Virus record (IMG/VR): IMGVR_UViG_2651869691_000008
Direction: 5' to 3' (one strand)
DNA from: a virus
Taxonomy: Duplodnaviria; Heunggongvirae; Uroviricota; Caudoviricetes
DNA: 37,385 bases
The translations under genes and the position numbers were made by a program. Shown here one piece after another: positions 1 to 27,252 of this stretch. Position 1 is the first letter of the stretch. The number at the start of each line of letters is the position of its first letter. The notes beneath the pieces are model-generated. The model was given only the letters and a program-made list of their open reading frames with translations, had not been told where the DNA came from and did no database searches.

Positions 1-549
1 ATGCAATTTAATATCCCTACGTTGCTTACACTGTTCCGTGTCATCCTTATCCCATTCTTTGTATTGGTCTTTTATTTGCCTGTCACCTGGTCGCCGTTTG
101 CCGCCGCGCTCATTTTCTGCGTCGCGGCGGTGACTGACTGGTTCGATGGTTTTCTGGCACGCCGCTGGAATCAGAGTACCCGGTTTGGTGCTTTCCTTGA
201 CCCTGTCGCAGATAAAGTTCTCGTGGCTATCGCCATGGTGCTGGTAACCGAGCATTACCACAGCTGGTGGGTGACCTTACCGGCAGCAACGATGATCGCC
301 CGTGAAATTATTATTTCTGCGCTACGCGAATGGATGGCGGAGTTGGGTAAACGCAGTAGCGTGGCTGTCTCCTGGATTGGGAAAGTGAAAACCACTGCCC
401 AGATGGTGGCGTTAGCCTGGCTGCTGTGGCGTCCGAACATTTGGGTTGAGTACGCCGGTATTGCACTTTTCTTTGTGGCTGCGGTACTGACTCTGTGGTC
501 AATGTTGCAATATTTGAGCGCTGCGCGTGCAGATTTGCTTGATCAGTGA
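1..549 (+). CDS. pgsA: CDP-diacylglycerol--glycerol-3-phosphate 3-phosphatidyltransferase (phosphatidylglycerophosphate synthase)
   Basis: 182-aa [23 protein letters not shown]...; full-length match to enterobacterial PgsA as I recall it; followed by the glyW-cysT-leuZ tRNAs as in E. coli. Confidence 0.9.
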
Positions 550-700
550 TCGTTTCGGCGCAATTTTCAGCAAACGATCAAAAGTGGTGAAAAATATCGT
601 TGACTCATCGCGCCAGGTAAGTAGAATGCAACGCATCGAACGGCGGCACTGATTGCCAGACGATAATAAAATCAAGTGATTAACTGATTGCTTGATGAAT

Positions 701-776
<76 letters not shown>

Positions 777-829
777 GTTTAAAAGGCATCGGCGTCAGCG
801 GATGTCTGGCTGAAAGGCCTGAAGAATTT

Positions 830-903
830 GGCGCGTTAACAAAGCGGTTATGTAGCGGATTGCAAATCCGTCTAGTCCGGTTCGACTCCGGAACGCGCCT
901 CCA
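830..903 (+). tRNA. cysT: tRNA-Cys (anticodon GCA)
   Basis: GGCGCGTTAACAAAGCGG...GATTGCAAATCC anticodon loop...GGTTCGACTCCGGAACGCGCCTCCA. Confidence 0.9.
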
Positions 904-915
904 CTTTCTTCCCGA

Positions 916-1002
916 GCCCGGATGGTGGAATCGGTAGACACAAGGGATTTAAAATCCCTCGGCGTTCGCGCTGTGCGGGTTCAAGTCCCGCTCCGGGTAC
1001 CA
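916..1002 (+). tRNA. leuZ: tRNA-Leu (anticodon TAA), long variable arm
   Basis: GCCCGGATGGTGGAATCGGTAGACACAAGGGATTTAAAATCCC...GGTTCAAGTCCCGCTCCGGGTACCA. Confidence 0.9.
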
Positions 1003-1045
1003 TGGGAAAGATAAGAATAAAATCAAAGCAATAAGCAGTGTCGTG

Positions 1046-1069
1046 AAACCACCTTCGGGTGGTTTTTTT
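1046..1069 (+). terminator. rho-independent terminator of the tRNA operon
   Basis: GC hairpin AAACCACC-TTCG-GGTGGTTT followed by a T-run. Confidence 0.6.
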
Positions 1070-1154
1070 GTATTTGTATTTTGTGCAATGGCGGTTGAGT
1101 GGCGATGGTGTGGCGATATGCAGAAACAATGGTAGTGCACGTGCTGTTTAAACT

Positions 1155-1890: not shown

Positions 1891-1931
1891 AAAAAGAAAA
1901 CCCGCAGTTCTTACGCTGCGGGTTTGTTGTT
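1891..1931. terminator. bidirectional hairpin terminator (CCCGCAG...CTGCGGG) flanked by A/T runs
   Basis: stem CCCGCAG / CTGCGGG with T-rich tracts on both strands; lies 3' of hok (minus) and of the 1541-1822 ORF (plus). Confidence 0.5.
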
Positions 1932-2010
1932 CATGTCTGTGAGATAGGGTGCCACTTCAGCCAACCTTAGCAACCGATTGACGGGGGATTGCTCCCCCGT
2001 CGCGGTTTCC

Positions 2011-2151
2011 TTACTGCTTACACTGTAAGAACGCCGCAAACTCCGCTCCCCAGAAGCTCATCCGTATTTCACACAGCGAACCGTGTAGCATCCAGATGAT
2101 GAGGATTACCGTCACGCAGAACGTGATGGCCGTAAGCGATTTTTGCGACAT
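2011..2151 (-). CDS. Hok/Gef-family type I toxin (46 aa, single TM helix)
   Basis: minus-strand ORF MSQKSLTAITFCVTVILIIWMLHGSLCEIRMSFWGAEFAAFLQCKQ, not in the ORF track because <60 aa; AAGGAG RBS 8 nt upstream; SLCEIR and E.AAF motifs typical of Hok; 3' hairpin GACGGGGGATTGCTCCCCCGTC at 1979-2000 and terminator at 1891-1931. Confidence 0.6.
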   Translation of the reverse strand: MSQKSLTAITFCVTVILIIWMLHGSLCEIRMSFWGAEFAAFLQCKQ

Positions 2152-2342
2152 AGCGCTTGCTCCTTTGTTGGAGAGGCGCTAACCTATCACTTGCTTAAGG
2201 TAGATATGTTAGGGCCTCGGTTAAACAGAAATGTTTTCCGGGGCCTTTCCACATCTGGCCTTCGGGTATTCCCTCCGACCATCAGCCGAAAGGCACCCGC
2301 GCGTAATCTATCGCTTTTTTGTTACTCCGGCAATTCTGCCTG

Positions 2343-2603
2343 TTAATTCTGAGGTAAAGGCAAACTCATCTGATTGTTTCCCCTGTGTGAAGCTGGCAGC
2401 TCATGCCACGGGATACCTTCTGAAGAGTGAACGCCGGAGGTGTGTTTTGATGTGAATTTATGGAAAGCTTCCAGTGTTGAGAAGCATACGCCGCATTCCA
2501 GGTTGTTACACTGGTAATACTTTTGCCGCACGGTGTTTGAATCATTTTCCGGACGACTGGTGCGGATACGGGCAGATGCGCCACAAAGCGGACAACGGAA
2601 CAT
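2343..2603 (-). CDS. ogr: Ogr/Delta-family zinc-finger late-gene transcriptional activator
   Basis: MFRCPLCGASARIRTSR...YYQCNNLECGVCF four-Cys motif as in P2 Ogr; AAGGGAGG RBS; its 3' coding end overlaps DNA paralogous to the hok leader. Confidence 0.8.
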   Translation of the reverse strand: MFRCPLCGASARIRTSRPENDSNTVRQKYYQCNNLECGVCFSTLEAFHKFTSKHTSGVHSSEGIPWHELPASHRGNNQMSLPLPQN

Positions 2604-2645
2604 AGCGACCTCCCTTAACGTGGTGCTGCTGCTATTCTAAGTTGC

Positions 2646-3755
2646 TCACTCTGTTTCTGCTATCCATTCCGGGATTTTTGCCTCAAGCTCAAGCTGCGTG
2701 GTAAAGCCGCTGTTATCGATGGTGTGCTCGGCTTTTGCAATAATCCAGTCCTGATTATCAATCTCGCTTTTAAATCCTGTTACCGTGCCATGCATTTCGG
2801 GGTAGAGTTCTGCACGACCACATGCCAGCGTGATGGAGAATGATGCGGCTCCGCGTTGTAGCTGCTGCCACTTTGCCGCCGCTGCGCGTCTTGCTGCCTG
2901 CTCGTTCTGATAAGTCTTGCGTAACACAAACACATTGCCTTCCGCGCCTTCCATATAATCACCTTCGCGGCTGCTGCTTTTCTCCTTTTTGGGTTTTGGC
3001 GGTTTGCGGTGTTTCACGCTGACTTTTTTCTTTTTCCCGTAATTAAGATCAAGCCAGTAAGCGCGTACCCCCGTATACGCTTCGCGGTCAGCAATGCGGA
3101 ACTGATGGCGATCGCCACTGCTGCGCGTGATGGCGAACGATGGCAACGGCTGGCCCTGTGCGTTCACGCCACCGCCTGGCATAATGAATAACAGATTACC
3201 GCTTTTTACCGTGGTGATTGCGCCCAGCATTTCCGCCATGCGCGTAAGGAAGGACATGTCGCTTTCTTCGGTCTGGTCGGCGTGGTCGATTTCGATATCC
3301 ATCAGCATTTCGCTGATTTGCGGTTTCAGACCATACCGATGAGCGATGGCGGATACCACACGCTCAACGGTCACATCATGCCAGGACACCTCACGTTTAA
3401 CGTTAAATTCATCCCGAAAATCTGCGCTTCTGGCTGAAACAGTCAGCCTGTCCGGCGGTCCTTCGTGAGCGATTTCATCAACAATGTAAGTGCCTTTTTC
3501 TGTCAGCGGTTCTCCTTTCCAGCCAATGAGAACCGTCAGGCGCGCGCCCCGTGGCGGTAGCTGCAACTGACCATCCGCATCATCCAGCGTGATGGTGAGC
3601 TGGTCCGCGTCAAATCCCCGGTTGTCGGTCAGTGACAGGCTCATCAGGCGCTCTGCCACGCCTGACAGCGTTTTACCCTCCGCGAGAATATCAAAATCCG
3701 GCATTTTCACGGGGTCTGTGCCCTGACTGAGCAATTGCATGGTGGTATCGGTCAT
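2646..3755 (-). CDS. P2 gpD-like tail protein (late control gene D)
   Basis: start refined to ATG at 3755 (GGAGGG RBS 5 nt upstream) within the 2646-3887 ORF; by P2 synteny the gene preceding ogr is D; family call from position and size. Confidence 0.8.
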   Translation of the reverse strand: MTDTTMQLLSQGTDPVKMPDFDILAEGKTLSGVAERLMSLSLTDNRGFDADQLTITLDDADGQLQLPPRGARLTVLIGWKGEPLTEKGTYIVDEIAHEGPPDRLTVSARSADFRDEFNVKREVSWHDVTVERVVSAIAHRYGLKPQISEMLMDIEIDHADQTEESDMSFLTRMAEMLGAITTVKSGNLLFIMPGGGVNAQGQPLPSFAITRSSGDRHQFRIADREAYTGVRAYWLDLNYGKKKKVSVKHRKPPKPKKEKSSSREGDYMEGAEGNVFVLRKTYQNEQAARRAAAAKWQQLQRGAASFSITLACGRAELYPEMHGTVTGFKSEIDNQDWIIAKAEHTIDNSGFTTQLELEAKIPEWIAETE

Positions 3756-3912
3756 CTGTTCCCTCCCTGTGCGGCATGGTCGCATGTGCGTGCGGAGGGG
3801 GTTACTGCTTTTTGTTGTCGCCGGATCGGGAGAACGGCACAGGGGTGAGATTACGCGCGTGGTGGGTGATGATTGTTGCCGAATCATTTAACGGATACAA
3901 GGGGCTAAAGCT

Positions 3913-5097
3913 ATGAGTGAAACTCGTTTTCATGGTGCCCGTGTTACGGAAAATACCGACCTGGTAACAGCGATTAACGATGTTGATTCCAGCGTTATCG
4001 GTATCGTGGCAACGGCGGATGATGCGGACGCGAAGCTGTTCCCGCTGAACAAGCCCACACTGCTGACCCGCGTCAATGACGTGCTGGGAAAATGCGGGAC
4101 AACGGGGACGCTTTATCGTGCGCTTAAGGCCATCGCAGACCAGGTGAGCACAAAGGTGATCGTCGTTCGCGTGGCTGAACACAAAGAAGAAGACGGAAAG
4201 ACGCAGGATCAACTGGTTATCGGTGGTTCTGAATCTGACGGCAGCTATACGGGGATGTATGCGCTGCTTGTTGCAGAGCAGGATGAAAGCATCGGATACC
4301 GTCCGCGTATTCTGGCCGCGCCGGAGCTGGACACGGAGGCGGTGACAAAATCCCTGTGCGTGATTGCGGGTAAACTGCGCGCGTTTGTGTATGCCTCATG
4401 TCACGGCTGTAACACGATGGCTGAGGTGATTACCTACCGCCAGAAATTCAACGAACGTGAGGTGATGCTCTTATGGCCGGACTTCATCGCCTACAACCCG
4501 AAAAGTGGCAAAAACGAAACGTTCCCCGCGCCTGCCTATGCGTGCGGCCTTCGTGCGTACATTGACCATGAGCAGGGATGGCACAAATCACTGTCCAACG
4601 TTCCGGTTAAAAATGTGCTGGGGATGTCCAGGCATGTGTTCTGGTCGTTGCAGGCCGAAGACAGCGATGCCAACAGCCTCAACAACAAAGAAATCACGAC
4701 CATTATTCGTCGCAACGGGTTCCGCTTCTGGGGCAACCGCACACCGGAAACGAACGCCTACATCTTTGAGGTGTATACCCGAACCGCACAGGTGCTGGCT
4801 GATTCAATTGCGGAAGCGCAGTTTGAAACCATCGACAGTCCACTGACGCCTGCGAACGTGAAAGATGTTATCAGTGCCATCAGGGCAAAACTGGATTCAC
4901 TGGTTACTGCCGGGAAACTGATTGGGGCGTCGTGCTGGTATGACGTGGTGGATAACGGCACCACGAATTTACGTCAGGGGCGTGTGCGTATTCGCTACAA
5001 ATATACGCCTGTTCCCCCGCTGGAAGACATGGAGCTTTACCAGTCGTTTACTGATGAATTCTTTGGTCCCGCATTTGCGGTGCTGGGAGGTGTCTGA
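3913..5097 (+). CDS. contractile tail sheath protein (P2 gpFI-like)
   Basis: 394-aa ORF; sheath-like size and position ahead of the tube gene; opposite strand to D/ogr. Confidence 0.85.
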   Translation: MSETRFHGARVTENTDLVTAINDVDSSVIGIVATADDADAKLFPLNKPTLLTRVNDVLGKCGTTGTLYRALKAIADQVSTKVIVVRVAEHKEEDGKTQDQLVIGGSESDGSYTGMYALLVAEQDESIGYRPRILAAPELDTEAVTKSLCVIAGKLRAFVYASCHGCNTMAEVITYRQKFNEREVMLLWPDFIAYNPKSGKNETFPAPAYACGLRAYIDHEQGWHKSLSNVPVKNVLGMSRHVFWSLQAEDSDANSLNNKEITTIIRRNGFRFWGNRTPETNAYIFEVYTRTAQVLADSIAEAQFETIDSPLTPANVKDVISAIRAKLDSLVTAGKLIGASCWYDVVDNGTTNLRQGRVRIRYKYTPVPPLEDMELYQSFTDEFFGPAFAVLGGV

Positions 5098-5609
5098 TGG
5101 CTGTACCAAAACATCTTCGCTTTTTTACGCTGTTTGTGGATGGTGAAAACGAAGTGGGTAAGGTGACGTCCGTCACCCTGCCTAAACTGACGCGCAAAAC
5201 CGACAGCTATCGTGGTGGTGGCATGATGGGGGCGGTAAGTATTGATCTCGGTCTGGACGACTCCGCGCTTGATGCGAGTTTTGTTATGGGGGGAGCTGTT
5301 CGTGCGCTGTTCCTTAAATATGGCGGCACGATTGACGGCACGCTGCTGCGTTTTGCGGGTGAATACTACACCGATGCAGAAAGCGATCTGTATGAAATCG
5401 AGATGCGCGGACGTGTGACGGAAATTGATATGGGGGAAGCCAAACAGGGCGAAGCCACATCACACACTTACGCCATTAAAAACACCTACTACAAGCTGAG
5501 TGTTAACGATCGCCCGTTGTGGGAGATTGACCTGCTGAACTTCATTTACCGGAAGGACGGCAAGGACATTGTGCCCGATCGCATCCGTTCCGCGCTTGGG
5601 CTTGGCTGA
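5097..5609 (+). CDS. tail tube protein (P2 gpFII-like)
   Basis: 170-aa ORF; start overlaps the sheath stop (TGATG). Confidence 0.85.
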   Translation: MAVPKHLRFFTLFVDGENEVGKVTSVTLPKLTRKTDSYRGGGMMGAVSIDLGLDDSALDASFVMGGAVRALFLKYGGTIDGTLLRFAGEYYTDAESDLYEIEMRGRVTEIDMGEAKQGEATSHTYAIKNTYYKLSVNDRPLWEIDLLNFIYRKDGKDIVPDRIRSALGLG

Positions 5610-5663
5610 TAAGTAATATGCAGGCGGCGCAGTGCGTCGCCTCTGACTGAAAGGAGTTTCCTG

Positions 5664-6029
5664 ATGAAAGAGACGAAAAACATCGATACCGAAAACACGG
5701 TCGTTGCTGACACTGTGAAAGAAACCAGTGAGCGTGGCGTAAAACTTACCCAACCAATTGAGCGAGGCGGCGAAAAAATCACGTATGTGGAGATCACCGG
5801 AGCTATTGAGCAGGCTGGATCTCTGCGAGATTTGTCGCTGTCTGATGTGCTGAATCTGAAAGCGGAATCCATGTTTACGCTGCTGTCACGCGTGACATCA
5901 CCGCGACTGGATGAAGTGACGATCAAAAAAATGGCATCCCGTGACTTTATTCAGTTATGTGCGGTTGCCGTAAATTTTTTGAGCGGTGCGGACTCTGGCG
6001 GGAAGAACGAACAGGCGACGGAAGCCTGA
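5664..6029 (+). CDS. tail assembly chaperone (P2 gpE-like)
   Basis: 121-aa acidic ORF immediately upstream of the tape-measure gene. Confidence 0.75.
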   Translation: MKETKNIDTENTVVADTVKETSERGVKLTQPIERGGEKITYVEITGAIEQAGSLRDLSLSDVLNLKAESMFTLLSRVTSPRLDEVTIKKMASRDFIQLCAVAVNFLSGADSGGKNEQATEA

Positions 6030-6193
6030 TCACGATTGTGTGCTTTGAGCACATAGAAGACTTTGTGGCAGATATTGCCGTTATTTTTAACTGGTCGCCC
6101 GCCGAAATCTTCATGATGACGCCCGGCGAAGTGGTTAGCTGGCGTGAGCGGGCGGCACTTCGCAGCGGGAGTGCAGACAATGAAGACTCTTGA
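5664..6193 (+). CDS. gpE+E' fusion chaperone made by programmed -1 frameshift at the T-run 5975-5981
   Basis: slippery TTTTTTG at 5975-5981 in the E frame; the -1 frame continues ...FFERCGLWREERTGDGSLITIVCFEHIEDFVADIAVIFNWSP... to a stop at 6193, overlapping the T start. Confidence 0.6.
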
Positions 6194-8987
6194 TATCCGG
6201 GTCGCTTTCAGCGCCGTTGACAGGCTGACCCGGCCTGCCGAAAACGCCCGCCGCCTGATGGGGCAGTTTGGTGACTCCATCCAGCGAACGCAGGGGGCGA
6301 TCAAAAATCTCGAGCGTCAGGCGCGTTCATTTGAGCGCGCCCGCGACGCTGTCAGTAAAGCGGATGCGGGTATCGTGAAAGCACGACGCCAGCTTAACGC
6401 CCTTAATCAGTTACAACGCACGGGTACAGTGCTCAGCGAAAAACAACAAAAGCTGATGCAGCAGTTAAGCAGCCGGCTTGAACGCCTGAATGAATCGCGC
6501 ACACGGGAAATTCAGAAAATGCGGGAACTTGGCGGAGAGCTGAAACGCCACGGCATTTCCCTGACAGGCAGCGATAACACCATCCAGCAGGCCATCAGAC
6601 GCACCGAACAGTACAACAACCAGCTTGAACGCGAACGGCAGGCGCTTGCGCGTGTAACGCGGGCGCGTGAGCGGTATTCGCGCGCGCAGGAAACCGCGGG
6701 AAAACTGAAAACAGGTGGTGCGCTGGCAATTGGTGCTGCAGCGGCTGGCGGCTATGCTGCCGGGCGTTTTTTGCAGCCTGCGATCGGGTTCGGCAAAGAG
6801 ATGTCCCGCGTTCAGGCACTGACGCGAATCGACAAAAACAGCCCGCAGTTTAAGGCGCTGCGTGAGCAGGCGTTAAAACTTGGTTCTGAAACACAGTTTA
6901 CTGCGAGTGATGCCGCCAGTGGGCAGAGCTTTCTGGCAATGGCTGGTTTTACTCCGCAGGCCATTCAGGCCGCATTGCCCGGTGTTCTTAATATGGCGCT
7001 GGCAGGTGGCGTCGAACTCGGCGAGACGGCTGATATAGGCTCCAATATCCTCACACAGTTCAACCTGACAGCCGATCAAATGGACCGGGTTGGCGATACG
7101 CTGACAGCAGCATTCACCCGGACCAATACTGATTTACGCGCGCTGGGCGAAACCATGAAGTATACCGGTCCGGTTGCCGCAAAACTTGGTATCAGTCTTG
7201 AAGAAGCGGCGGCCATGGCCGGGATGCTTGCCAATAATGGTCTTCGCGGAAGCGATGCTGGTACGGCCATGCGCGCAAGTCTGTCCCGCCTTGCATCACC
7301 GCCAAAAGCTGCGGCTGATGCACTGAAAGAGCAGGGGGTGTCAGTTGCTGACGCCAGAGGCAAAATGCGCCCGATGGAGGATGTGCTGCTTGATCTCTAT
7401 AAGGCGACACAAAAATACGGACAGGTGGACCAGGTCTCCTTCTTCAAGGACATCGCCGGAGAAGAGGCGTTCGTTGGTTTGCAGACGCTTGTTGCGGCGG
7501 CTGGTTCAGGAGAACTGCAAAAACTGACCAGAGAATTGCAGGGGGCAAGGGGAGAGGCCGATCGCGTTGCAAAAGTAATGGCCGATAATCTTGATGGAGA
7601 CCTGAAAAATCTCGACAGCGCATGGGAAGGTCTTCGTATTCGCATCAGTGATCTGGTTGACGGTCCGCTGCGTTCTGTCACGCAGTGGCTCACGCGGGTG
7701 CTTGAAAAAATCACCTCGCTGGCGCAGGCCCATCCGGTACTGACGCGCCAGCTACTGATAGCAAGCGGTGCGTTGCTGGCAATGACTGCAACGATTGGCT
7801 CGTTGTCGCTGGTTATTGGGGTGCTTTACGGGAAGCTGGCCACCTTGCGTCTTGGTTTCGACATTCTTACCCGGTCAATGAATGTCATCAGGGTGTTGCC
7901 TGCGCTGTGGGGAATGGTGACGGGTTCTGTTTCTTTGCTGGGAGGAGCTATCGGGGCGCTGTTCAGTCCGGTTAGTCTTATCGTGGCTGCGCTTGCCGGC
8001 GCTGCCGTTCTTATCTGGAAATACTGGGATCCCATCAGGGCATTTTTTGCCGGGGTGTTCAGCGGGATTATGGAAAGGCTGAACCCGTTGCGTGAAACCT
8101 TTGAACGGTTTGGCCCTGTTTTTGACGCAATCGGAAGCGGGATCAGCCAGGTGTTTAACTGGTTTAAATCGCTGCTGTCACCGATGGAGTCCAGCAAGGA
8201 AACGCTGGATAAATGTACCAGTGCTGGCGAGATATTCGGTAACGTTCTTGGTGGCGCGTTACAGCTTGTTCTGACGCCTGCAAAAATGTTGCTGGATACG
8301 CTGGCGTGGATACTTGAAAAACTCGGTGTTCTTCCGGATGAAGCGGAAAGGGCGAGAAAGAAAATCGAAGACGCACAGCGTGCGGCCATTCTTCAGGACA
8401 AGGTTGCCTTACTTCAAGGGGACCTGGCGAAAATCAATCCGCCGAAGCCTGTGGAAAATGGCAATGGCACCGGAGGTGATAAACCCAAAGACAACAAACC
8501 GCTCACAGACAGCAATACCGGGACGCTACGCAGACTCAGCAAAATTGCTGATAACACAGGTAAGCTGGTTGATGAGACGAAAAAACGCATTGGCCCCGGC
8601 GATATTGTCTTTAAGAACCTGCCCCGCGCACTTGCTGTTCGTGGGGAGTGGCAGGAGCGGAAGATTGCGCAGGTCAGTAAGCCTGCCCCCGCAATTAATA
8701 TCACACCTGTGGTTCCGGCTCCGCTGCCTCCGGCGCTGGTCCCTGTTGTTGCGGCCAGCTCCCGCCCGGTGGCAGAGGCCATACGATCGCCAGTGGCATC
8801 AGTTCCTGCAACTTCCCGTAACCGGGAGACTGTTGCCTCCGGATTTGGCGGTGAAATTCATGTTCATCTGCATAACGTTGTTACGCAGAATCCCCGCGAA
8901 CTGGCGAAACTGGTCGGTGAAATGGTCAGGGCAGAGATGGAACGGCGCGCCCGTGCCGGGCGTGGCAGTTTTTACGATAAAGATTGA
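6180..8987 (+). CDS. tail tape measure protein (P2 gpT-like)
   Basis: long ORF, coiled-coil-rich N-terminus, Ala/Gly-rich hydrophobic middle; ATG at 6180 preferred (GGGAG RBS) over GTG at 6144. Confidence 0.85.
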   Translation: MKTLDIRVAFSAVDRLTRPAENARRLMGQFGDSIQRTQGAIKNLERQARSFERARDAVSKADAGIVKARRQLNALNQLQRTGTVLSEKQQKLMQQLSSRLERLNESRTREIQKMRELGGELKRHGISLTGSDNTIQQAIRRTEQYNNQLERERQALARVTRARERYSRAQETAGKLKTGGALAIGAAAAGGYAAGRFLQPAIGFGKEMSRVQALTRIDKNSPQFKALREQALKLGSETQFTASDAASGQSFLAMAGFTPQAIQAALPGVLNMALAGGVELGETADIGSNILTQFNLTADQMDRVGDTLTAAFTRTNTDLRALGETMKYTGPVAAKLGISLEEAAAMAGMLANNGLRGSDAGTAMRASLSRLASPPKAAADALKEQGVSVADARGKMRPMEDVLLDLYKATQKYGQVDQVSFFKDIAGEEAFVGLQTLVAAAGSGELQKLTRELQGARGEADRVAKVMADNLDGDLKNLDSAWEGLRIRISDLVDGPLRSVTQWLTRVLEKITSLAQAHPVLTRQLLIASGALLAMTATIGSLSLVIGVLYGKLATLRLGFDILTRSMNVIRVLPALWGMVTGSVSLLGGAIGALFSPVSLIVAALAGAAVLIWKYWDPIRAFFAGVFSGIMERLNPLRETFERFGPVFDAIGSGISQVFNWFKSLLSPMESSKETLDKCTSAGEIFGNVLGGALQLVLTPAKMLLDTLAWILEKLGVLPDEAERARKKIEDAQRAAILQDKVALLQGDLAKINPPKPVENGNGTGGDKPKDNKPLTDSNTGTLRRLSKIADNTGKLVDETKKRIGPGDIVFKNLPRALAVRGEWQERKIAQVSKPAPAINITPVVPAPLPPALVPVVAASSRPVAEAIRSPVASVPATSRNRETVASGFGGEIHVHLHNVVTQNPRELAKLVGEMVRAEMERRARAGRGSFYDKD

Positions 8988-8993
8988 GGAGTC

Positions 8994-9488
8994 ATGGCCA
9001 TGATGATGATCTATGGCATGTTTGTTTTTGAGCTGCGCACGTTGCCGCATCAGCAGTTACAGCAAAACAAAAGCTGGCGGCATGTGAAAAATGAACGCGT
9101 TAACCGTTCAGCAAGCTGGCAGTATATCGGGGCAGGCGATGATCGCATCGTTCTTTCTGGTGTGCTTTATCCTGAAATTACAGGTGGCGAAGTGTCGCTT
9201 TCGTTGCTGACCTCGCAGGCATATACAGGACGCCCCTGGCCTCTGATTGATGGTGTCGGGCAGATTTACGGCATGTATGTCCTGACCGGAACGAATACGA
9301 CCCGCTCCGAGTTTGATCGCTACGGTAAGGCGAAAAAGATAGAATTTTCACTGACTCTTGAACGCTGTGATGAGGATTTGCGGGAGCGCCTGCAATCCTC
9401 ATCGTTCAGTGATATGCTGTCCGGCTTCAAAGATAAGGTCACATCATCCCTTAACAGCGCGGCCAGCTCCGTTAAAGGGCTGTTTTGA
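8994..9488 (+). CDS. tail protein (P2 gpU-like)
   Basis: 164-aa ORF directly after the tape measure; GAGGAG RBS. Confidence 0.75.
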   Translation: MAMMMIYGMFVFELRTLPHQQLQQNKSWRHVKNERVNRSASWQYIGAGDDRIVLSGVLYPEITGGEVSLSLLTSQAYTGRPWPLIDGVGQIYGMYVLTGTNTTRSEFDRYGKAKKIEFSLTLERCDEDLRERLQSSSFSDMLSGFKDKVTSSLNSAASSVKGLF

Positions 9489-9492
9489 TTAA

Positions 9493-9525
9493 CGCAAAAC
9501 CGCTAATGGTCAGATTAGCGGTTTT
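9493..9525. terminator. bidirectional hairpin between convergent U and invertase genes
   Basis: AAAACCGCTAAT-GGTCAG-ATTAGCGGTTTT, 10-bp stem flanked by A/T runs. Confidence 0.5.
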
Positions 9526-10114
9526 CATTTTCCTGAGTCTGCCTGGTTGTTTCTTCAGCCTGTATATCGCCTACAGGGTGATAACGATAAATCGTCGATA
9601 TGCCGATGTCGTAAATGATCGCCAGTTGTTTCCTGTCATGACCGTTTTTAATCAGCCTCGCTATTTGCTCGTGTTGTTCTTTTGTCAACTTCGGGCGACG
9701 TCCGCCAATGCGTCCTTGTGCGCGTGCTGCTGCCAGCCCGGCCAGTGTACGCTCTACAATTAATTCACGTTCCATTTCGGCTAAAGCCCCCATGACGTGA
9801 AAAAAGAAACGCCCCATGGGTGTTGATGTGTCAATGCTGTCCGTCAGACTACGGAAATTAACACCTTTTTCCCGCAATTCCTCAATAAGCGTGATCAGGT
9901 GTTTCATACTTCTGCCCAGTCTGTCCAGCTTCCAGACAACCAGCGTATCTCCTTCTGATAGCGTTCTGAGCAGTTTTTTCAATCCCGGTCTGGCTGATTT
10001 CGTTCCGCTGATTTTATCTTCAAAAATCAGTTCACATCCTGCGCAGTTCAGTGCATTGCGTTGTAAATCCGTGTTCTGGTCATTTGTTGACACACGAATA
10101 TAGCCAATTTGCAT
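9515..10114 (-). CDS. serine DNA invertase (Hin/Gin/Cin/Pin family)
   Basis: ATG at 10114 (AAGAGGA RBS) gives MQIGYIRVSTNDQNTDLQRNAL...LVVWKLDRLGRSMKHLI...GRIGGRRPKLT, resolvase catalytic domain plus C-terminal HTH; the longer 9515-10324 ORF is an N-terminal artefact. Confidence 0.9.
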   Translation of the reverse strand: MQIGYIRVSTNDQNTDLQRNALNCAGCELIFEDKISGTKSARPGLKKLLRTLSEGDTLVVWKLDRLGRSMKHLITLIEELREKGVNFRSLTDSIDTSTPMGRFFFHVMGALAEMERELIVERTLAGLAAARAQGRIGGRRPKLTKEQHEQIARLIKNGHDRKQLAIIYDIGISTIYRYHPVGDIQAEETTRQTQENENR

Positions 10115-10168
10115 AAAAAACATCCTCTTTGTTTCGTGAAAAATACATAGTTGGTATAGGTAGGGATA

Positions 10169-10194
10169 AAAACGAAAACGTTGGTTTGGGGGAA
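10169..10194 (+). other. hix/gix-like 26-bp recombination site at start of cassette 1
   Basis: AAAACGAAAACG-TT-GGTTTGGGGGAA; shares the AAAC(C/G)-NN-GGTTT core with sites at 10683, 11200 and (inverted) 12761. Confidence 0.6.
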
Positions 10195-10689
10195 GGTTCT
10201 GCGCTGCCTGTTGGTGTGCCCGTTCCATGGCCCTCAGCCACACCACCAACGGGCTGGCTGAAATGCAATGGTGCAGCATTTTCTTCTGAAATGTATCCCG
10301 GACTGGCAAAAGCCTACCCCGCAAATAAATTACCGGATTTACGGGGAGAATTTATTCGCGGCTGGGATGATGGGCGCGGGGTGGATGCTGGCCGCGCTTT
10401 GCTTAATTGGCAGCCACACACAATTTTGGATCATGCACACTATATGGAATTATGGACCGGGAACGGACTTGCCGTGGAAAGTGCACGGGAAGGATTAAAC
10501 CCTGGAATACTGGCTACATACGGGGACGGGGGAATAGTTAAAACAGACGAACCCGGTTTAAGGGTGCCTTCCTCACTACGAGCCATTAGCTCTCGTAATG
10601 TAAAACGGTTTGGTGAAATTAGTGGAAATGTAGGTACAGAAACTCGCCCTCGCAACGTTGCATTCAATTACATCGTAAGAGCCGCATGA
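10183..10689 (+). CDS. silent (promoterless, startless) tail-fibre C-terminal tip cassette 1
   Basis: in-frame GLGEGSALPVGVPVPWPSATPPTGWLKCNGAAFSSEMYP...RGWDDGR identical to the H junction region, divergent middle, conserved C-terminus ETRPRNVAFNYIVRAA; no in-frame ATG with RBS. Confidence 0.7.
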   Translation, partial: GLGEGSALPVGVPVPWPSATPPTGWLKCNGAAFSSEMYPGLAKAYPANKLPDLRGEFIRGWDDGRGVDAGRALLNWQPHTILDHAHYMELWTGNGLAVESAREGLNPGILATYGDGGIVKTDEPGLRVPSSLRAISSRNVKRFGEISGNVGTETRPRNVAFNYIVRAA

Positions 10690-10708
10690 AAACGTTGGTT
10701 TGGGGGAA
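10683..10708 (+). other. hix/gix-like recombination site at start of cassette 2
   Basis: CGCATGAAAACG-TT-GGTTTGGGGGAA; overlaps the cassette-1 stop codon. Confidence 0.6.
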
Positions 10709-11206
10709 GGTTCTGCGCTGCCTGTTGGTGTGCCCGTTCCGTGGCCCTCAGCAACACCACCAACGGGCTGGCTGAAATGTAACGGCGCAGCATTTTCTTC
10801 TGAAATGTATCCCGGACTGGCAAAGGCTTACCCCACCAATAAATTACCGGATTTACGGGGTGAATTTATTCGTGGCTGGGATGATGGACGTAGTGCGGAT
10901 GCGGGGAGAACAATATTATCCGCTCAAGGTGATGCCATACGTAATATCTATGGTGAGTTCAAGACTGTAAACACTGAAAATTATTCAATATGGGAATCAG
11001 TAGGCTCGTTTAAGGGGGCAGTGGTGCCTTTAAATTCCTCAACAAACAATAGTTATTTCTCCTTAGTCAGAAGTATGGTGACAGAAAGGACAGACGGCGC
11101 TGTTTACCCAAAAGTGATTGGCCTTGATGCTTCAAAAATTGTTCCAACTGCAAACGAAAACCGCCCACGCAACATTGCGTTTAATTACATCGTAAGGGCA
11201 GCATGA
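10697..11206 (+). CDS. silent tail-fibre C-terminal tip cassette 2
   Basis: same conserved N-linker and C-terminal RPRNIAFNYIVRAA, distinct central region. Confidence 0.7.
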   Translation, partial: GLGEGSALPVGVPVPWPSATPPTGWLKCNGAAFSSEMYPGLAKAYPTNKLPDLRGEFIRGWDDGRSADAGRTILSAQGDAIRNIYGEFKTVNTENYSIWESVGSFKGAVVPLNSSTNNSYFSLVRSMVTERTDGAVYPKVIGLDASKIVPTANENRPRNIAFNYIVRAA

Positions 11207-11225
11207 AAACGTTGGTTTGGGGGAA
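11200..11225 (+). other. hix/gix-like recombination site at start of cassette 3
   Basis: AGCATGAAAACG-TT-GGTTTGGGGGAA. Confidence 0.6.
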
Positions 11226-11693
11226 GGCTCTGCACTGCCCGTTGGTGTGCCTGTTCCATGGCCCTCAGCCACACCACCAACGGGCTGGCTGAAATGTAAC
11301 GGTGCAGCATTTTCTTCTGAAATGTATCCCGGACTGGCAAAGGCTTACCCCACAAATAAATTACCGGATTTACGCGGAGAATTTATCCGTGGCTGGGATG
11401 ATGGGCGAGGAATTGATGCGGCACGCGCTTTATTGAGCATTCAAAACGGGATGTTGGAAAAACACCGCCATATTGTTGTAGCTAACGATGGATATGACAC
11501 AAAAGATGAATGGGAGTTGGCTACGATTTTCAAAAAAACATATACACAAGGCAGGGGACTTGATGCCACAAATACAGGAGGGAGTTTGATTCCATCACCA
11601 ACGCTTCATTCACGAGGAAGTATTGGTAACACAGGTGGTAGTGAAACCCGCCCCCGCAATATTGCATTTAACTATATCGTGAGGGCGGCTTAG
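11214..11693 (+). CDS. silent tail-fibre C-terminal tip cassette 3
   Basis: same conserved N-linker and C-terminal RPRNIAFNYIVRAA, distinct central region. Confidence 0.7.
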   Translation, partial: GLGEGSALPVGVPVPWPSATPPTGWLKCNGAAFSSEMYPGLAKAYPTNKLPDLRGEFIRGWDDGRGIDAARALLSIQNGMLEKHRHIVVANDGYDTKDEWELATIFKKTYTQGRGLDATNTGGSLIPSPTLHSRGSIGNTGGSETRPRNIAFNYIVRAA

Positions 11694-11699
11694 TTATAT

Positions 11700-12311
11700 T
11701 CAACTGGCTGATGCCAGTGGTATTTCCGGCAAGTTGATATCTGGTGCCATGTTTATATCCATTGCGTTCAGCGCGTCTATATAATCCAGCACGGCATTAA
11801 GCCGGGTGGTTTCTGCCTGCGTCAACTTCCGCCCGGCCCGCAACTTCAACTGAATCAGACTTATGGAATCCATTGCCGCATCAGCCAGTGACTGGCGCTT
11901 GGTTTCTGCCGCTTCTACTGCGGCACGATGTTGTACCTCAGTATCTGTCACCCATTTTTCACCATCCCATTTATCGTATGGTGTTAACGGGGCGATAGTG
12001 GTTGTATTTTTCGGGTAGTCACCCAGCGCCGTGATTTCTTCGGTGTTTCCCGTGTCAGTGCTATAGACGGTTTCACCACGATGGTCTGGCGCATACTCCC
12101 ATGAATTTAAATCCTCCGAACGGCGAATAGCATAGCCAGATTTATGTGCGCCTGGGGCATCTAAACAGGAATTAGCCGGAATACCAACACCCACAGCAAG
12201 ATATTCAGTTGATTCGGAAATATATTCCCGTGTCTCACCATCATAGTTATAAACGACGATGTTTCCTGCCTGTACGGCAATAAGGTCATCATTTAATATC
12301 GCGTTATTCAT
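11700..12311 (-). CDS. tail fibre assembly protein (P2 gpG / Tfa-like chaperone)
   Basis: 203-aa ORF immediately after H (start overlaps H stop, TAATG); Tfa-like position and size. Confidence 0.8.
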   Translation of the reverse strand: MNNAILNDDLIAVQAGNIVVYNYDGETREYISESTEYLAVGVGIPANSCLDAPGAHKSGYAIRRSEDLNSWEYAPDHRGETVYSTDTGNTEEITALGDYPKNTTTIAPLTPYDKWDGEKWVTDTEVQHRAAVEAAETKRQSLADAAMDSISLIQLKLRAGRKLTQAETTRLNAVLDYIDALNAMDINMAPDINLPEIPLASAS

Positions 12312-13906
12312 TATGCGGTTCTCACAATATAATTGAAGGCAATATTGCGTGGGCGGGCTTCATTCCCCCCTGAGGATTCCGTTCTGTATTGACTGGTAAA
12401 TCTACCGTTAATTGCACCTTGCCGGACGGCGTTATCTGTCGACAACAGACTATCCCCTCCTTTGTCATTTGGCACCAGTACCGTGTTATCCCACGCGTCC
12501 CATGACCGAATATTATGATAATGACTTCCTGTTAACCACCCCTGCATGCTTAAGATGCCCCTTCCGGCATCCACCCCGCGCCCATCATCCCAGCCACGGA
12601 TAAATTCACCGCGTAAGTCTGGTAATTTATTGGTGGGGTAAGCCATTGCCAGTCTGGGATACATTTCAGAAGAAAATGCTGCGCCGTTACATTTCAGCCA
12701 GCCCGTTGGTGGTGTTGCTGAGGGCCACGGAACGGGCACACCAACGGGCAGTGCAGAACCTTCTCCTAAACCAAGGTAATCAAGAACGCCCTGAGTGCTG
12801 GTTTTACCAAGAATGGCACGTCCAACACTTGTCAACGCGGTTAACGCGGCACGATCTGCCCCTGTAAAATATGGGAGTTTATCTGCTGATGTAGCAAGCT
12901 TCGCCAGCGCCGTCAGGATGGCATCCTTCGGTTGCTTACCCGCAAGCGCGTTAGTCATGGTGGTCGCAAAATTCGGGTCATTGCCCAGCGCCGCAGCCAG
13001 TTCGTTCAGCGTGTTCAGTGCATCAGGTGACGAATCTACAAGTGCGGCAATCGCGGCCATAACGAAAGCTGTGCTTGCGATCTGGGTATTATTAGTCCCC
13101 TGTGGCGCTGTTGGTGTTGTTGGCGTTCCGGTCAGTGCCGGGCTGTTTAATGGTGCTTTCTTGTTCGTTTCATCCATTACCACCTTAACAGCTTTTGGTG
13201 TCGCTGCCAGCGTTTCAGACGTGCTGTTCGTGGCGCTACTGAGCTGAACAATCCCTTTTTGTGTAGTGGTGGCGTTCTGGGCGGTATATTTCCCGTTAGC
13301 CAGGTCATATGCAGCCTTAACCGCTTTCGGTGTTGCGGCCAGTGTTTCTGATTCACTGTTAATTGCACTGCTTAACTGAGTAAAACCTTTTACGGTCAGC
13401 GAGGCGTCCGGGTGACGTCGTGATTGTTCGTGCTCTGATATTTTATCATCCACATATTTGCGGGTTGCCAGAACCACAGACGGGTCGATTTTCAGCGTGA
13501 TGGCTTCGGTGTTCGTGACAACCAGAATCATGCGGATAGTCTGGGTGCGTCCACTGCCTTCCTGCAACTGCGGTTTGTACGTTTCCGGGCAGTTTGCCAC
13601 CGCAATGAGTACACCTTCATCATCATAAAGACCAATCTCACGGATCCAGAATCCTCCCTCGTTTTCAGGGATGATTTGCTCCGCAATAATCTGGCTCTGA
13701 TTGTTAGGGTCAACACTCAGAAGATTCAGCGGTGCAATGCGTTTCTGGTTAATCAGTTTTGTTTGTGCAGGGTCTGGTGTTGGTAACACACCATTTGCAT
13801 CACCAACGGCCATTTGCGTCAGATTCAGCTTACTGCCGAGCATCGTCGCGTTAGCCAGTCGTGCCGCGCCCTGATTAGTCAGAATGGCGTAGTATTTCAC
13901 TGTCAT
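12311..13906 (-). CDS. tail fibre protein (P2 gpH-like), currently fused to variable tip 0
   Basis: N-terminal two-thirds P2 H-like (AEHEQSRRHPDASLT, repeated QLSSA..S.SETLAATPKAVK, ALGNDPNFATTMTNALAGKQPKD); after ...DYLGL the sequence matches the cassette linker, then a unique tip ending EARPRNIAFNYIVRTA. Confidence 0.9.
   Translation of the reverse strand: MTVKYYAILTNQGAARLANATMLGSKLNLTQMAVGDANGVLPTPDPAQTKLINQKRIAPLNLLSVDPNNQSQIIAEQIIPENEGGFWIREIGLYDDEGVLIAVANCPETYKPQLQEGSGRTQTIRMILVVTNTEAITLKIDPSVVLATRKYVDDKISEHEQSRRHPDASLTVKGFTQLSSAINSESETLAATPKAVKAAYDLANGKYTAQNATTTQKGIVQLSSATNSTSETLAATPKAVKVVMDETNKKAPLNSPALTGTPTTPTAPQGTNNTQIASTAFVMAAIAALVDSSPDALNTLNELAAALGNDPNFATTMTNALAGKQPKDAILTALAKLATSADKLPYFTGADRAALTALTSVGRAILGKTSTQGVLDYLGLGEGSALPVGVPVPWPSATPPTGWLKCNGAAFSSEMYPRLAMAYPTNKLPDLRGEFIRGWDDGRGVDAGRGILSMQGWLTGSHYHNIRSWDAWDNTVLVPNDKGGDSLLSTDNAVRQGAINGRFTSQYRTESSGGNEARPRNIAFNYIVRTA
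12761..12786 (-). other. hix/gix-like recombination site inside H at the constant/variable junction
   Basis: minus strand reads TTCTTGATTACC-TT-GGTTTAGGAGAA, inverted relative to the three cassette sites. Confidence 0.6.
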
Positions 13907-17700: not shown

Positions 17701-17968
17701 CTTTTGCAATATCGTTGCGTAGCTGTTCACGTCTTACCTCTCCGTCCTGATTGCGTTGCTGATTTTCCACGCGGAGTTGCGCCAGCACCTGCTGCATATC
17801 CTGTACCCCGGCGCTGATGATATTCAGGGTGTCGGCGGTACTTTTCAGGGTGCTGGCCTGCGCTTCGTTTCTGGCGTTCTCCCGGCCCAGCGACCACGAC
17901 AGACGCATGGATGTTCCCCATCCGGCAGTCAGAAGGAAAGCGACGCCAAGCGTGGGCCAGAGCTTCAT
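17561..17968 (-). CDS. i-spanin (LysB/Rz-like)
   Basis: ATG at 17968 gives MKLWPTLGVAFLLTAGWG (N-terminal TM) followed by a coiled-coil-like region; directly after the endolysin. Confidence 0.5.
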   Translation of the reverse strand: MKLWPTLGVAFLLTAGWGTSMRLSWSLGRENARNEAQASTLKSTADTLNIISAGVQDMQQVLAQLRVENQQRNQDGEVRREQLRNDIAKDECAHALPDARFTDRLRRHAERATASAVSPAYTADADHTGNASPLP

Positions 17969-22234: not shown

Positions 22235-22387
22235 AGTTTTGCCCCTCTGACTGGTTCTTCAGTCATGATGGCAAAGCGTAACAGGCTGATACAAAGGGCT
22301 TTTGTTGTAAGAAAACGGCCAGAACAGGGGGTTAAGGAGAACAGTTTCGCGCGCGGGTAATCTTCCTGTAATTACTCAGGGGGAGCA

Positions 22388-26873: not shown

Positions 26874-26936
26874 TGTGTCCCCTTTGTTTGTGTTCCCGGA
26901 TTAAAGTCATCAGGGCGGATGCGCCCTGATGTTGTA

Positions 26937-27248
26937 TTATTCGGGAAATAACGCCCGGATATTTCCGGCCATCTGACTGGTTATCTGTGCGGTTGATACT
27001 GGCTGTGATGCGGGGCGTTCTGTCCTGGTTTGTGTCACTGATAACGCTTCATCATCAGCCCATGCAGCCAGTCGGTAAGCCTCTGCCGGATTCATTTTCA
27101 GAAGTGCCAGCCCGGCCAGAAAAGCCACACGTTGGCCGCTTTTGCGGGCTTCTGGTGTAAGGCTGTCCAGCCAGGCGCATGCTTCGCCTTCGTTCTTGAC
27201 GGCGGCGGGCTTCAGATAGAAACTTATTCGTCTGGTTGGTGTCGTCAT
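26937..27248 (-). CDS. ParR-like DNA-binding partner protein
   Basis: ATG at 27248 (AAGGAG RBS), 4 nt after the ParM-like stop; N-terminal RRISFYLKP...LDSLTPEARKSGQRVAFLAGLAL and C-terminal NIRALFPE resemble plasmid R1 ParR as I recall it. Confidence 0.55.
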   Translation of the reverse strand: MTTPTRRISFYLKPAAVKNEGEACAWLDSLTPEARKSGQRVAFLAGLALLKMNPAEAYRLAAWADDEALSVTQTRTERPASQPVSTAQITSQMAGNIRALFPE

Positions 27249-27252
27249 TGGT

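Follow-up and report, generated by a model that had tools for sequence, protein, structure and literature searches.

In phages P2, 186 and Fels-2 the late tail genes form the F operon, with the order FI-FII-E-E'-T-U-D followed by ogr (B in 186), and an Ogr-responsive activator site lies approximately 55 bp upstream of the FI transcription start, or approximately 80 bp from the FI ATG. The consensus for such sites is TGT-N12-ACA (PMC3931495). A different arrangement is found at pP/pO of P2 and p12/pV of 186, where a single activator dyad sits in the middle of a divergent late gap of approximately 150 bp. In the annotation of P2 pP/pO, transcription begins 55-56 bp away on either side of one activator site. 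P/O is the sole pair of this kind in P2 and 186, and in both phages ogr is annotated with its own non-late promoter. Two phages with the gene layout described below have been characterized: P88 is inducible and lytic (PMC5285337), and Citrobacter phage phiSM shows spontaneous activity (PMC6456863). We found no published description of an inverted FI-U block. The orientation of the tail operon is not mentioned in the papers on P88, SEN4/5, phiSM and Serratia PP4, and the inversions discussed in the Xenorhabdus and Kosakonia tailocin papers are those of fibre cassettes only.

Here we analyze a stretch of 37,385 nucleotides of viral DNA (the window), in which the genes FI to U lie on the opposite strand to D. 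This inverted FI-U layout is the normal, anciently fixed order of a large P2-like branch that includes viable phages, and it is already known from public annotated genomes rather than from a published statement. The features at and around the block are as follows.

2343-2603, minus strand: ogr, late-gene activator with an Ogr/Delta zinc finger (Pfam Ogr_Delta, 5e-14), 42 bp downstream of D
2646-3755, minus strand: gene D, baseplate hub / late control D, 369 aa (Pfam Phage_GPD)
3756-3912, no strand: divergent D/FI control region, 157 bp, between the D ATG (3755) and the FI ATG (3913)
3913-5097, plus strand: FI, tail sheath (Pfam sheath domains)
5097-5609, plus strand: FII, tail tube (Pfam Phage_tube, 2e-46)
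5664-6193, plus strand: E (5664-6029) and an overlapping putative E' frame to 6193, tail assembly chaperones (open reading frames)
6144-8987, plus strand: T, tape measure protein (Pfam PhageMin_Tail, 4.5e-55)
8994-9488, plus strand: U, tail protein and final gene of the inverted block (Pfam Phage_P2_GpU, 2.6e-38)

The P2-like late tail gene set is identified by Pfam matches for FI, FII, T, U, D and Ogr_Delta. The match for E is weak (Phage_TAC_7, E 0.006, under the curated cutoff); at the E/E' position P88 is annotated with two small tail proteins. Structural proteins of the window share 33-57% identity with their counterparts in 186. FI is 98% identical to that of P88 and 46% identical to those of P2 and 186, and the ogr product shares 36-38% identity with P2 Ogr and 186 B. 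For ogr, the first-pass annotation had chosen a GTG open reading frame at 2366-2584, which has no Pfam match; the real gene is the overlapping ATG frame at 2343-2603.

Both the open reading frame layout and the Pfam matches place FI to U on the plus strand and D, ogr and V to H-G on the minus strand, as first reported, with a 157-bp divergent gap between D and FI. The block had also been described as inverted relative to every other late operon, which is too broad: I, J, W, V and onward to O are on the minus strand like G and H, but P-Q (22388-25185) is on the plus strand and co-directional with FI-U. Comparison with P2, 186, Fels-2, phiCTX and other canonical Peduoviridae bears out the inversion of FI to U relative to the canonical order, in which D directly follows U in the same direction. 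D is uncoupled from its usual operon and lies outside that of FI. D is no longer downstream of U and needs its own promoter; it has its own ribosome-binding site, a Shine-Dalgarno sequence (GGAGGG) before the ATG at 3755.

The U/invertase junction and the tail-fibre cassettes

At its distal end the FI-U block meets the gene for a DNA invertase and an invertible tail-fibre region, in which inverted repeats of 214-240 nt are present.

9496-9525, no strand: two-way intrinsic terminator hairpin common to the FI-U operon and the invertase gene (terminator scan)
9515-10114, minus strand: serine DNA invertase of the Hin/Gin/Cin/Pin type (Pfam Resolvase and HTH_7)
10129-10689, 10700-11206 and 11217-11693, plus strand: three silent cassettes for the H C-terminus, each with Collar domains
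11700-12311, minus strand: G, in the invertible tail-fibre region (10129-13906)
12311-13906, minus strand: H, in the same region
10169-10194, 10683-10708, 11200-11225 and 12761-12786, no strand: hix-like sites scoring 22-26 bits

The hairpin, AAAACCGCTAATGGTCAGATTAGCGGTTTT, has a 12-bp stem with an A-run on its 5' side and a T-run on its 3' side, and is placed between the U stop codon (9486-9488) and the invertase stop codon (9515-9517). U and the invertase gene thus converge on a common terminator, in agreement with the first-pass annotation.

The invertase gene and cassettes adjoin one breakpoint of the block, and the layout had at first been viewed as a notable event in this prophage, perhaps linked to the invertase. 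Under such a reading, the adjacent Hin/Gin-type enzyme would have catalyzed a recent inversion at a secondary site, either as a large invertible segment or as a one-off accident. The best hix-like score on the U side of the block ranks 9th of 37360 window positions, but at 8.8 bits it is far below the true sites, and the D side reaches only 3.6 bits. The initial failure to see a convincing hix-like site at either junction is upheld, and no inverted repeat joining the two junctions was found. The block accordingly lacks inverted 26-bp hix-like sites at its two ends, and near-identical copies do not occur in both orientations: a synthetic P2-type U-to-D junction built from window sequence was found at a query coverage of at least 80% in 0 of 1413 E. 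coli genomes. The layout is also present where the invertase is absent, in SEN5 and in 63 of the 80 IMG/VR loci, a number of which are truncated, and is common to relatives with as little as 60% identity in D. Conversely, the canonical phage Fels-2 carries the same invertase in the same position relative to its cassettes. A recent, invertase-catalyzed inversion is therefore extremely improbable. The invertase serves the tail-fibre cassettes and not the FI-U block.

Distribution and origin of the inverted layout

P88 is collinear with the window, and a single HSP (1891-10108) runs over both junctions. The alignment covers 78% of window positions 1100-37385 at 95.3% identity, giving a product of 74.5%; the right end of the prophage may be slightly incomplete. 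The ICTV convention for membership of a genus is a nucleotide identity to the type phage of approximately 70% or more, taken over the whole genome. The order ogr-D, FI to U, invertase, fibre cassettes, G-H is likewise that of Xuanwuvirus, and sequence comparison identifies the prophage in the window as a Xuanwuvirus (P88-like). Other Xuanwuvirus phages are 92-95% identical to it in DNA sequence through both junctions and 96-99% identical in D.

The same inverted layout is annotated in P88, phiSM, SEN4/SEN5, phiT5282H, 3LV2017 and ST16-OXA48phi5.4, and is present in five ICTV genera of the Peduoviridae: Xuanwuvirus, Novemvirus, Reginaelenavirus, Reipivirus and Senquatrovirus. Prophages in around 27 genera of Enterobacterales also belong to the inverted branch. 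Among 80 GTDB loci surveyed, the 60 whose D is at least 60% identical to that of the window are inverted without exception, and those with a D approximately 50% identical that contain FI are all canonical. A parallel IMG/VR census found the inverted layout in 80 of 80 loci, all above the same threshold of D identity. Of 5426 complete E. coli genomes, 1355 (around a quarter) have an unbroken D/FI junction, and the U/invertase junction is present in 621.

These counts bear on whether the layout could stem from faulty assembly at one junction or at both, as was initially considered. Nothing speaks for an artefact beyond the unusual look of the locus relative to P2. Identical junctions are found in independently sequenced phage genomes and in the complete E. 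coli genomes just described, and all 140 of the GTDB and IMG/VR loci above the 60% threshold are inverted; the probability of an artefact is negligible. The initial doubt over viability is likewise dispelled by P88 and phiSM, whose activity in the inverted layout is documented (PMC5285337, PMC6456863). The first-pass annotation had itself allowed that the arrangement might be the norm in related functional phages, and this is what was found. In its FI-U region the prophage shows no rearrangement, misassembly or visible damage, and comparisons of such prophages with P2 should expect the inverted layout.

Outside the inverted clade, orientation was checked in approximately 30 canonical phages and loci, and inversions of independent origin may exist elsewhere in the Peduoviridae. 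Canonical outgroups include P2, 186, Fels-2, phiCTX, Mannheimia phiMhaA1, Ralstonia RsoM1USA and Vibrio MAR. The inverted taxa, SEN5 included, are monophyletic in trees of D, FI, FII and U (neighbor-joining trees without bootstrap), and the gap in D identity between the canonical and inverted groups is modest (53% versus 60%). Taken on sequence grounds, these observations point to one ancient inversion of FI-U. Whether FI-U runs with or against D gives a clean two-state marker that separates this large branch from the P2/186/Fels-2 type.

A different origin could lie in mosaic exchange, whereby an ancestor swapped its FI-U genes for a foreign contractile-tail module that by chance had the opposite orientation. 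P2-like phages are mosaic, with rearranged late operons known elsewhere, for example in Smp131 (PMC3931495), and if the exchange was old and the donor closely related, the present-day picture would be much the same. Even so, genes within the block (33-46%) show a divergence from 186 similar to that of the outside genes D, V, W, J and I (46-57%), and the distance of FI, FII, T and U from their 186 and P2 counterparts is much like that of D, V, W, J, I, N, P and Q. The trees of FI, FII, U and D agree on the inverted clade and place canonical enterobacterial phages next to it, and the activator dyad of the pF type keeps its canonical spacing of 79-83 bp from FI. We regard mosaic exchange as improbable, and favor inversion in place: a segment running from just upstream of pF to the end of U was flipped once in the common ancestor and has been fixed from then on, with the neighboring serine invertase uninvolved.

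The divergent D/FI control region

The D/FI gap measures 145-175 bp (median 153 bp) in 58 relatives and contains conserved blocks in a clade-wide alignment. Its elements, together with the corresponding late gap between O and P, are listed below.

3776-3784, minus strand: predicted D promoter element, an extended -10 reading TGcGACCAT in the window and TGaAATCAT in the clade consensus, 46 bp from the dyad center
3814-3835, no strand: Ogr-type activator dyad GTTGT-N12-AGAAC, of the TGT-N12-ACA class with one mismatch (AGA for ACA)
3868-3873, plus strand: predicted -10 of an FI promoter, GATGAT, 46 bp from the dyad center
22235-22387, no strand: O/P divergent late control region, 153 bp, with a sister dyad GTTGT-N12-AGAAC at 22304-22325

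A strict search of the window for TGT-N12-ACA gave four matches, fewer than expected by chance and none at the start of a late operon. The one-base-variant dyads were found by comparing the D/FI gap, the O/P gap and the clade alignment. TTGTTGT-N12-AGAAC has two exact matches in the 37 kb, each at the center of one of the two divergent late gaps. A third candidate dyad at 17876-17899 on the minus strand was rejected: it has two mismatches, lies within coding sequence and has no obvious -10 element. A generic sigma-70 scan returned no promoter in the D/FI gap; activator-dependent promoters would be expected to escape such a scan, and the result is uninformative.

Across the 58 relatives, no element of the D/FI gap is better conserved than the dyad. 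Measured from its center (approximately 3824.5), the D ATG is 69 bp away and the FI ATG 88 bp. The equivalent dyad of P88 is at 33253-33274. The distance to the FI ATG has a median of 82 bp in the clade and is 79-83 bp in canonical phages, as for the annotated P2 pF site, and by sequence the dyad is a predicted counterpart of the Ogr-type site of canonical F operons. The -10-like hexamers to either side (3776-3781 on the minus strand and 3868-3873 on the plus strand) are weak, with 3-4 of 6 positions matching; in the alignment, the clade consensus on the FI side, GATTAT, is shifted downstream by about one base. The overall layout, a central dyad with -10-like elements approximately 45 bp to each side, is that of pP/pO. 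Because phages with the inverted layout are viable (PMC5285337, PMC6456863), the essential gene D must be expressed from within the D/FI gap. By analogy with P2 pP/pO, the dyad would drive FI and D divergently.

Alternatively, the inversion may be ancient and fixed while D and ogr depend on an independent promoter that is constitutive, early or under another regulator, in which case the timing of D expression would differ from that in P2. The weak predicted -10 of D in the window (GACCAT), the conserved CGCGCG-rich block that adjoins it and the separate promoter of ogr in P2 and 186 are all compatible with this. The central position of the dyad and the equal spacing of the two -10-like elements instead mirror both the window's own O/P gap and P2 pP/pO, and the D-side -10 block is kept in relatives down to 60% D identity. 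An independent D promoter is thus a less likely alternative, albeit one with a real share of the probability.

According to the mechanism that we prefer, pF and its Ogr-binding dyad would have moved along with FI, so that the dyad now lies in the middle of the 157-bp gap and probably activates two divergent late promoters. The rightward promoter would be read from FI to U and stop at the hairpin at 9496-9525, and the other would be read through D and ogr. The architecture would be that of P2 pP/pO, with one activator site approximately 55 bp from each transcription start and predicted late starts near 3880 for FI and near 3769 for D, and D would remain a late, Ogr-dependent gene in a separate D-ogr unit. 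We consider it highly probable that this whole account, an ancient in-place inversion fixed since and dyad-driven divergent FI-U and D-ogr units, is correct. A broader formulation is favored by a narrower balance: that a single ancient inversion of pF and FI to U is a shared derived character of at least five Peduoviridae genera, which made the pF site into a second bidirectional Ogr-dependent promoter in the style of pP/pO and created a new D-ogr late operon with the activator gene directly under a dedicated late promoter. The D/FI gap is predicted to be a natural second example of a divergent late promoter with a shared activator, and is easily testable.

Comparison with known systems

The closest systems are P88 and the other Xuanwuvirus phages (P884B11, 500465-2, 520873, PhiR44_2, Chuche and Citrobacter phage Shae_phiSM), which have ogr-D, FI-U, invertase, cassettes and G-H in the same orientation as the window. 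They differ from it in the C-terminus of the tail fibre, in the cassettes and in part of the early and accessory genes. Three tandem silent cassettes are present in the window, whereas P88 has one alternative fibre and an assembly gene. In Senquatrovirus (SEN4/SEN5), Novemvirus (phiT5282H), Reginaelenavirus (3LV2017) and Reipivirus (ST16-OXA48phi5.4), FI-U likewise diverges from D, ogr follows D wherever it is annotated, and D is 62-77% identical to that of the window. SEN5 and phiT5282H differ in having no invertase beside U, which converges instead on a fibre assembly gene.

The F operon of P2, 186 and Fels-2 shares with the window its genes, their internal order, an activator of the Ogr/Delta type and the predicted site upstream of FI; in the window FI to U and the promoter are inverted and D is not downstream of U. 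Fels-2 also has an invertase and cassettes between G and FI. The Hin/Gin/Cin/Pin segments (Mu G, P1 C and the fibre switches of Fels-2 and PSP3) resemble the window's tail-fibre region, where the invertase and 26-bp hix-like sites flank the cassettes (10.1-12.8 kb). The 5.6-kb FI-U block differs from these segments in having no such sites, and its other orientation is never seen. The nearest counterpart of the D/FI gap is P2 pP/pO (186 p12/pV), which both the O/P gap (153 bp) and the D/FI gap (157 bp) of the window resemble. Where P2 and 186 have P/O alone, the inverted clade would have a second such pair in FI/D, as judged from its sequence.

Gene map of the tail region

Genes in the window were assigned from ORF calls and Pfam matches. 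Beyond the tRNA genes, the window holds a P2-like prophage extending to an integrase gene truncated by the window's right end.

Features of the window (coordinates, strand, assignment)
1-549, pgsA, at the left end
701-1002, tRNA-Gly, tRNA-Cys and tRNA-Leu, at the left end
2343-2603, minus, ogr, late-gene activator (Pfam Ogr_Delta, 5e-14)
2646-3755, minus, D, baseplate hub (Pfam Phage_GPD)
3913-5097, plus, FI, sheath (Pfam sheath domains)
5097-5609, plus, FII, tube (Pfam Phage_tube)
5664-6029, plus, E (weak Phage_TAC_7 match, below cutoff)
6144-8987, plus, T, tape measure (Pfam PhageMin_Tail)
8994-9488, plus, U, tail protein (Pfam Phage_P2_GpU)
9515-10114, minus, invertase (Pfam Resolvase and HTH_7)
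10129-11693, plus, three silent cassettes (Pfam Collar domains)
11700-12311, minus, G (Pfam Caudo_TAP)
12311-13906, minus, H (tail-fibre domains)
to 22234, minus, I, J, W, V, S, R and onward to O (ORFs and similarity to 186 proteins)
22388-25185, plus, P and Q (ORFs and similarity to 186 proteins)

The map agrees with the first-pass annotation in placing FI-U on the plus strand, divergent from D across a gap of exactly 157 bp (3756-3912) and convergent with the invertase gene at a hairpin (9496-9525) that has a perfect 12-bp stem and runs of A and T on its flanks. Two details differ. The ogr gene, previously read as a GTG ORF at 2366-2584, is the overlapping ATG ORF, and the block does not oppose every other late operon, since P-Q is likewise on the plus strand.

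The prophage, aligned with the whole P88 genome, matches over 78% at 95.3% identity, and a single HSP covers 1891-10108; it is therefore a Xuanwuvirus prophage. It lies directly downstream of pgsA and a tRNA-Gly/tRNA-Cys/tRNA-Leu(taa) cluster (window 1-1100); the 3' end of the Leu tRNA gene is its probable integration site. Between this end and ogr is a 46-aa Hok/Gef-family toxin ORF (2011-2151, minus; Pfam HOK_GEF, 3.7e-7) matching a P88 gene annotated 'MokW-like host killing'; Rfam found no antisense RNA family for it at the gathering threshold. A plasmid-type partition module comprises ParM (27253-28212; StbA_N/ParM, 6e-82) and a Plasmid_stab_B protein (26937-27383).

Distribution and ancestry of the inverted order

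Megablast of window 2300-12400 against phage genomes matched Escherichia phage P88, Xuanwuvirus P884B11, Citrobacter phage Shae_phiSM, 500465-2, 520873, PhiR44_2, Chuche and others, each in a single collinear alignment across both junctions at 92-95% identity. Annotated orientations in the P88-type relatives equal those of the window, so the synteny comparison finds the block inverted relative to P2, 186 and Fels-2 but in the usual order for its own relatives. Named phages of five ICTV genera are annotated with this layout: Xuanwuvirus (P88), Senquatrovirus (SEN5), Novemvirus (phiT5282H), Reginaelenavirus (3LV2017) and Reipivirus (ST16-OXA48phi5.4). Phages that carry it are viable: P88 is inducible and lyses E. 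coli strains (PMC5285337, as cited in PMC6456863), and phiSM shows spontaneous activity (PMC6456863).

Among 5426 complete E. coli genomes, 1355 have the D/FI junction (3300-4400) intact, almost always at 95-99% identity. As a control, a synthetic P2-type junction was built from the window's sequence (the terminal 400 nt of U joined to the initial 400 nt of D); its halves are joined in none of the 1413 E. coli genomes having either one. Intact U/invertase junctions occur in 621 complete E. coli genomes, and many others have U without an adjoining invertase.

A wider census used D-protein alignment to select 80 loci from GTDB species representatives, and tblastn was used to score which way FI, FII, T and U point with respect to D. 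The block is inverted in every one of the 60 loci whose D reaches 60% identity to that of the window. They span about 27 genera (Salmonella, Citrobacter, Enterobacter, Klebsiella, Raoultella, Kosakonia, Kluyvera, Serratia, Pectobacterium, Brenneria, Erwinia, Pantoea, Edwardsiella, Symbiopectobacterium, Xenorhabdus, Photorhabdus, Providencia, Morganella, Hafnia, Yersinia and others). Where D is about 50% identical and FI is present, the order is canonical without exception. The block is likewise inverted throughout the 80 best IMG/VR loci (D 62-99%).

The earlier reading of a rearrangement thus holds as to orientation but not as to age: the inverted order is old, fixed and clade-defining in viable phages. 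A recent event in this prophage is contradicted by the same order in all census loci with D at least 60% identical and in roughly one in four complete E. coli genomes, and an assembly error by the recurrence of both junctions in phages and E. coli genomes. The inverted order is neither recent nor invertase-mediated, nor is it an assembly error.

Some database records call for comment. A 226-kb contig from a genome labelled as a Firmicute, 'Vagococcus sp. WN89Y' (NZ_JBQPOM010000071.1), carries a prophage with D 97% identical to the window's; the assembly is probably contaminated or mislabelled. Product names in the Shae_phiSM record (OR565851.1, 2294-4745) are displaced by one gene, so that D carries the name 'ogr/Delta-like zinc finger' and the sheath gene that of 'late control gene D protein'. 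The IS21-family element IS100 lies under the FI-T-U match in 520873 (NC_049344) and 503458 (NC_049341), seemingly splitting the tape measure gene; these Xuanwuvirus records may be defective prophages.

P2, 186, Fels-2, phiCTX, Mannheimia phiMhaA1, Ralstonia RsoM1USA and Vibrio vB_VpaM_MAR all have the canonical order, which is therefore ancestral. Neighbor-joining trees were made for D, FI, FII and U with the Vibrio phage as root; each places its 58-61 inverted taxa in a single clade free of canonical taxa. Divergence from 186 is about equal inside the block (identity: FI 46%, FII 46%, U 44%, T 33%) and outside it (D 48%, V 46%, W 47%, J 52%, I 57%, N 40%, P 42%, Q 50%). Import of a foreign tail module does not fit these data, as the block's proteins are about as far from 186 as their neighbors and the trees recover one inverted clade. 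We infer a single inversion in place in the clade ancestor, a well-supported reading short of proof because the trees carry no bootstrap values.

The invertase and fibre cassettes

The first-pass annotation had also noted that one breakpoint abuts the invertase and cassette locus, though with no convincing hix-like site at either junction. A hix half-site model was built from the window's own four strong hix-like sites (22-26 bits), three at the starts of tandem silent cassettes (10169, 10683, 11200) and the fourth inside H (12761). The cassettes (10129-10689, 10700-11206, 11217-11693) encode alternative H C-termini with a Collar domain in each. Inverted homology to H 12543-12782 extends over 214-240 nt in each of them, and the hix-like sites lie at the edges of these repeats. 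G is the only fibre-assembly gene in this switch (10129-12786); the window thus has a multi-cassette switch, whereas P88 has a single alternative fibre and assembly gene.

The evidence speaks against a role of the invertase in the inversion. At the FI-U junction zones the best hix scores are only 3.6 and 8.8 bits, no inverted repeat linking the two junctions was found in the window, and the inverted layout exists without an invertase in SEN5 and phiT5282H. The gene is also absent from 63 of the 80 inverted IMG/VR loci, some of them truncated. Conversely, canonical Fels-2 carries the same invertase at this position, immediately upstream of FI, and in P2 fun(Z) occupies this position. The G-to-FI gap is an accessory-DNA slot in P2-like phages, and the invertase is a bystander to the inversion.

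A candidate bidirectional late promoter between D and FI

P2 late operons depend on Ogr through a TGT-N12-ACA site (PMC3931495). The P2 record has one site common to divergent pP and pO, whose transcripts start 56 and 55 bp away from it in the two directions, and one pF site about 83 bp from the FI ATG. The window's 37 kb contain exactly two copies of TTGTTGT-N12-AGAAC, at 3812-3835 (D/FI gap) and 22302-22325 (O/P gap), each close to the middle of its gap of about 155 bp. The core, GTTGT-N12-AGAAC, is one base off GTTGT-N12-ACAAC, so a strict pattern search missed it. When the D/FI gaps of 57 relatives and the window are aligned, this dyad is the most conserved element, and many relatives have the perfect form. 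Across the alignment, the median distance of its centre is 69.5 bp to the D ATG and 82 bp to the FI ATG. In canonical enterobacterial loci a dyad of this type is found at 79-83 bp from the FI start codon, and this matching spacing identifies the D/FI dyad as the likely pF site, carried along with the inversion.

Conserved -10-like elements lie 46 bp either side of the dyad centre: consensus TGaAATCAT on the D strand (TGcGACCAT in the window, 3776-3784) and consensus GATTAT on the FI strand (GATGAT in the window, 3868-3873). Their positions predict starts near 3769 (minus) and 3880 (plus), each about 55 bp from the centre. The inversion would have moved the pF dyad between D and FI, where it would drive divergent late transcription of both, with ogr, 42 bp beyond D, included in the late D transcript. 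D might possibly be driven by an Ogr-independent promoter. Since essential D must be transcribed from within the gap in viable phages, a bidirectional late promoter is the simplest reading.

Other elements were seen. Alternating CGCGCG(CG) blocks immediately precede the predicted late -10s (3783-3795, 3854-3859, 22346-22353), the D-side copy being among the best-conserved columns of the clade-wide alignment; P2 pF has nothing like it. A third dyad, GTTGT-N12-ATAAC (26931-26952), lies just downstream of the partition module, recurs in P88 at 10116 and may be a further Ogr-responsive site. Within the lysis-gene region, TCGTGGTCGCTGGGCCGGGAGAAC (17876-17899, minus) closely resembles the D/FI dyad region, GTCGCCGGATCGGGAGAAC, and could be an internal late promoter for R-S-V and following genes or a chance match.

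The inverted arrangement is known inasmuch as many annotated reference genomes show it; in the searchable full text of papers on P88, SEN4/5, phiSM, Serratia PP4 and Xenorhabdus/Kosakonia tailocins we found no statement on it. A clade-wide second bidirectional Ogr promoter would be a modest, easily testable point of comparative genomics. Late operons are rearranged in other P2-like phages too, such as Smp131 (PMC3931495). The proposed D-ogr co-transcription would much resemble P2, where ogr is transcribed late by read-through from pF, and the D/FI gap would function in the manner of pP/pO.
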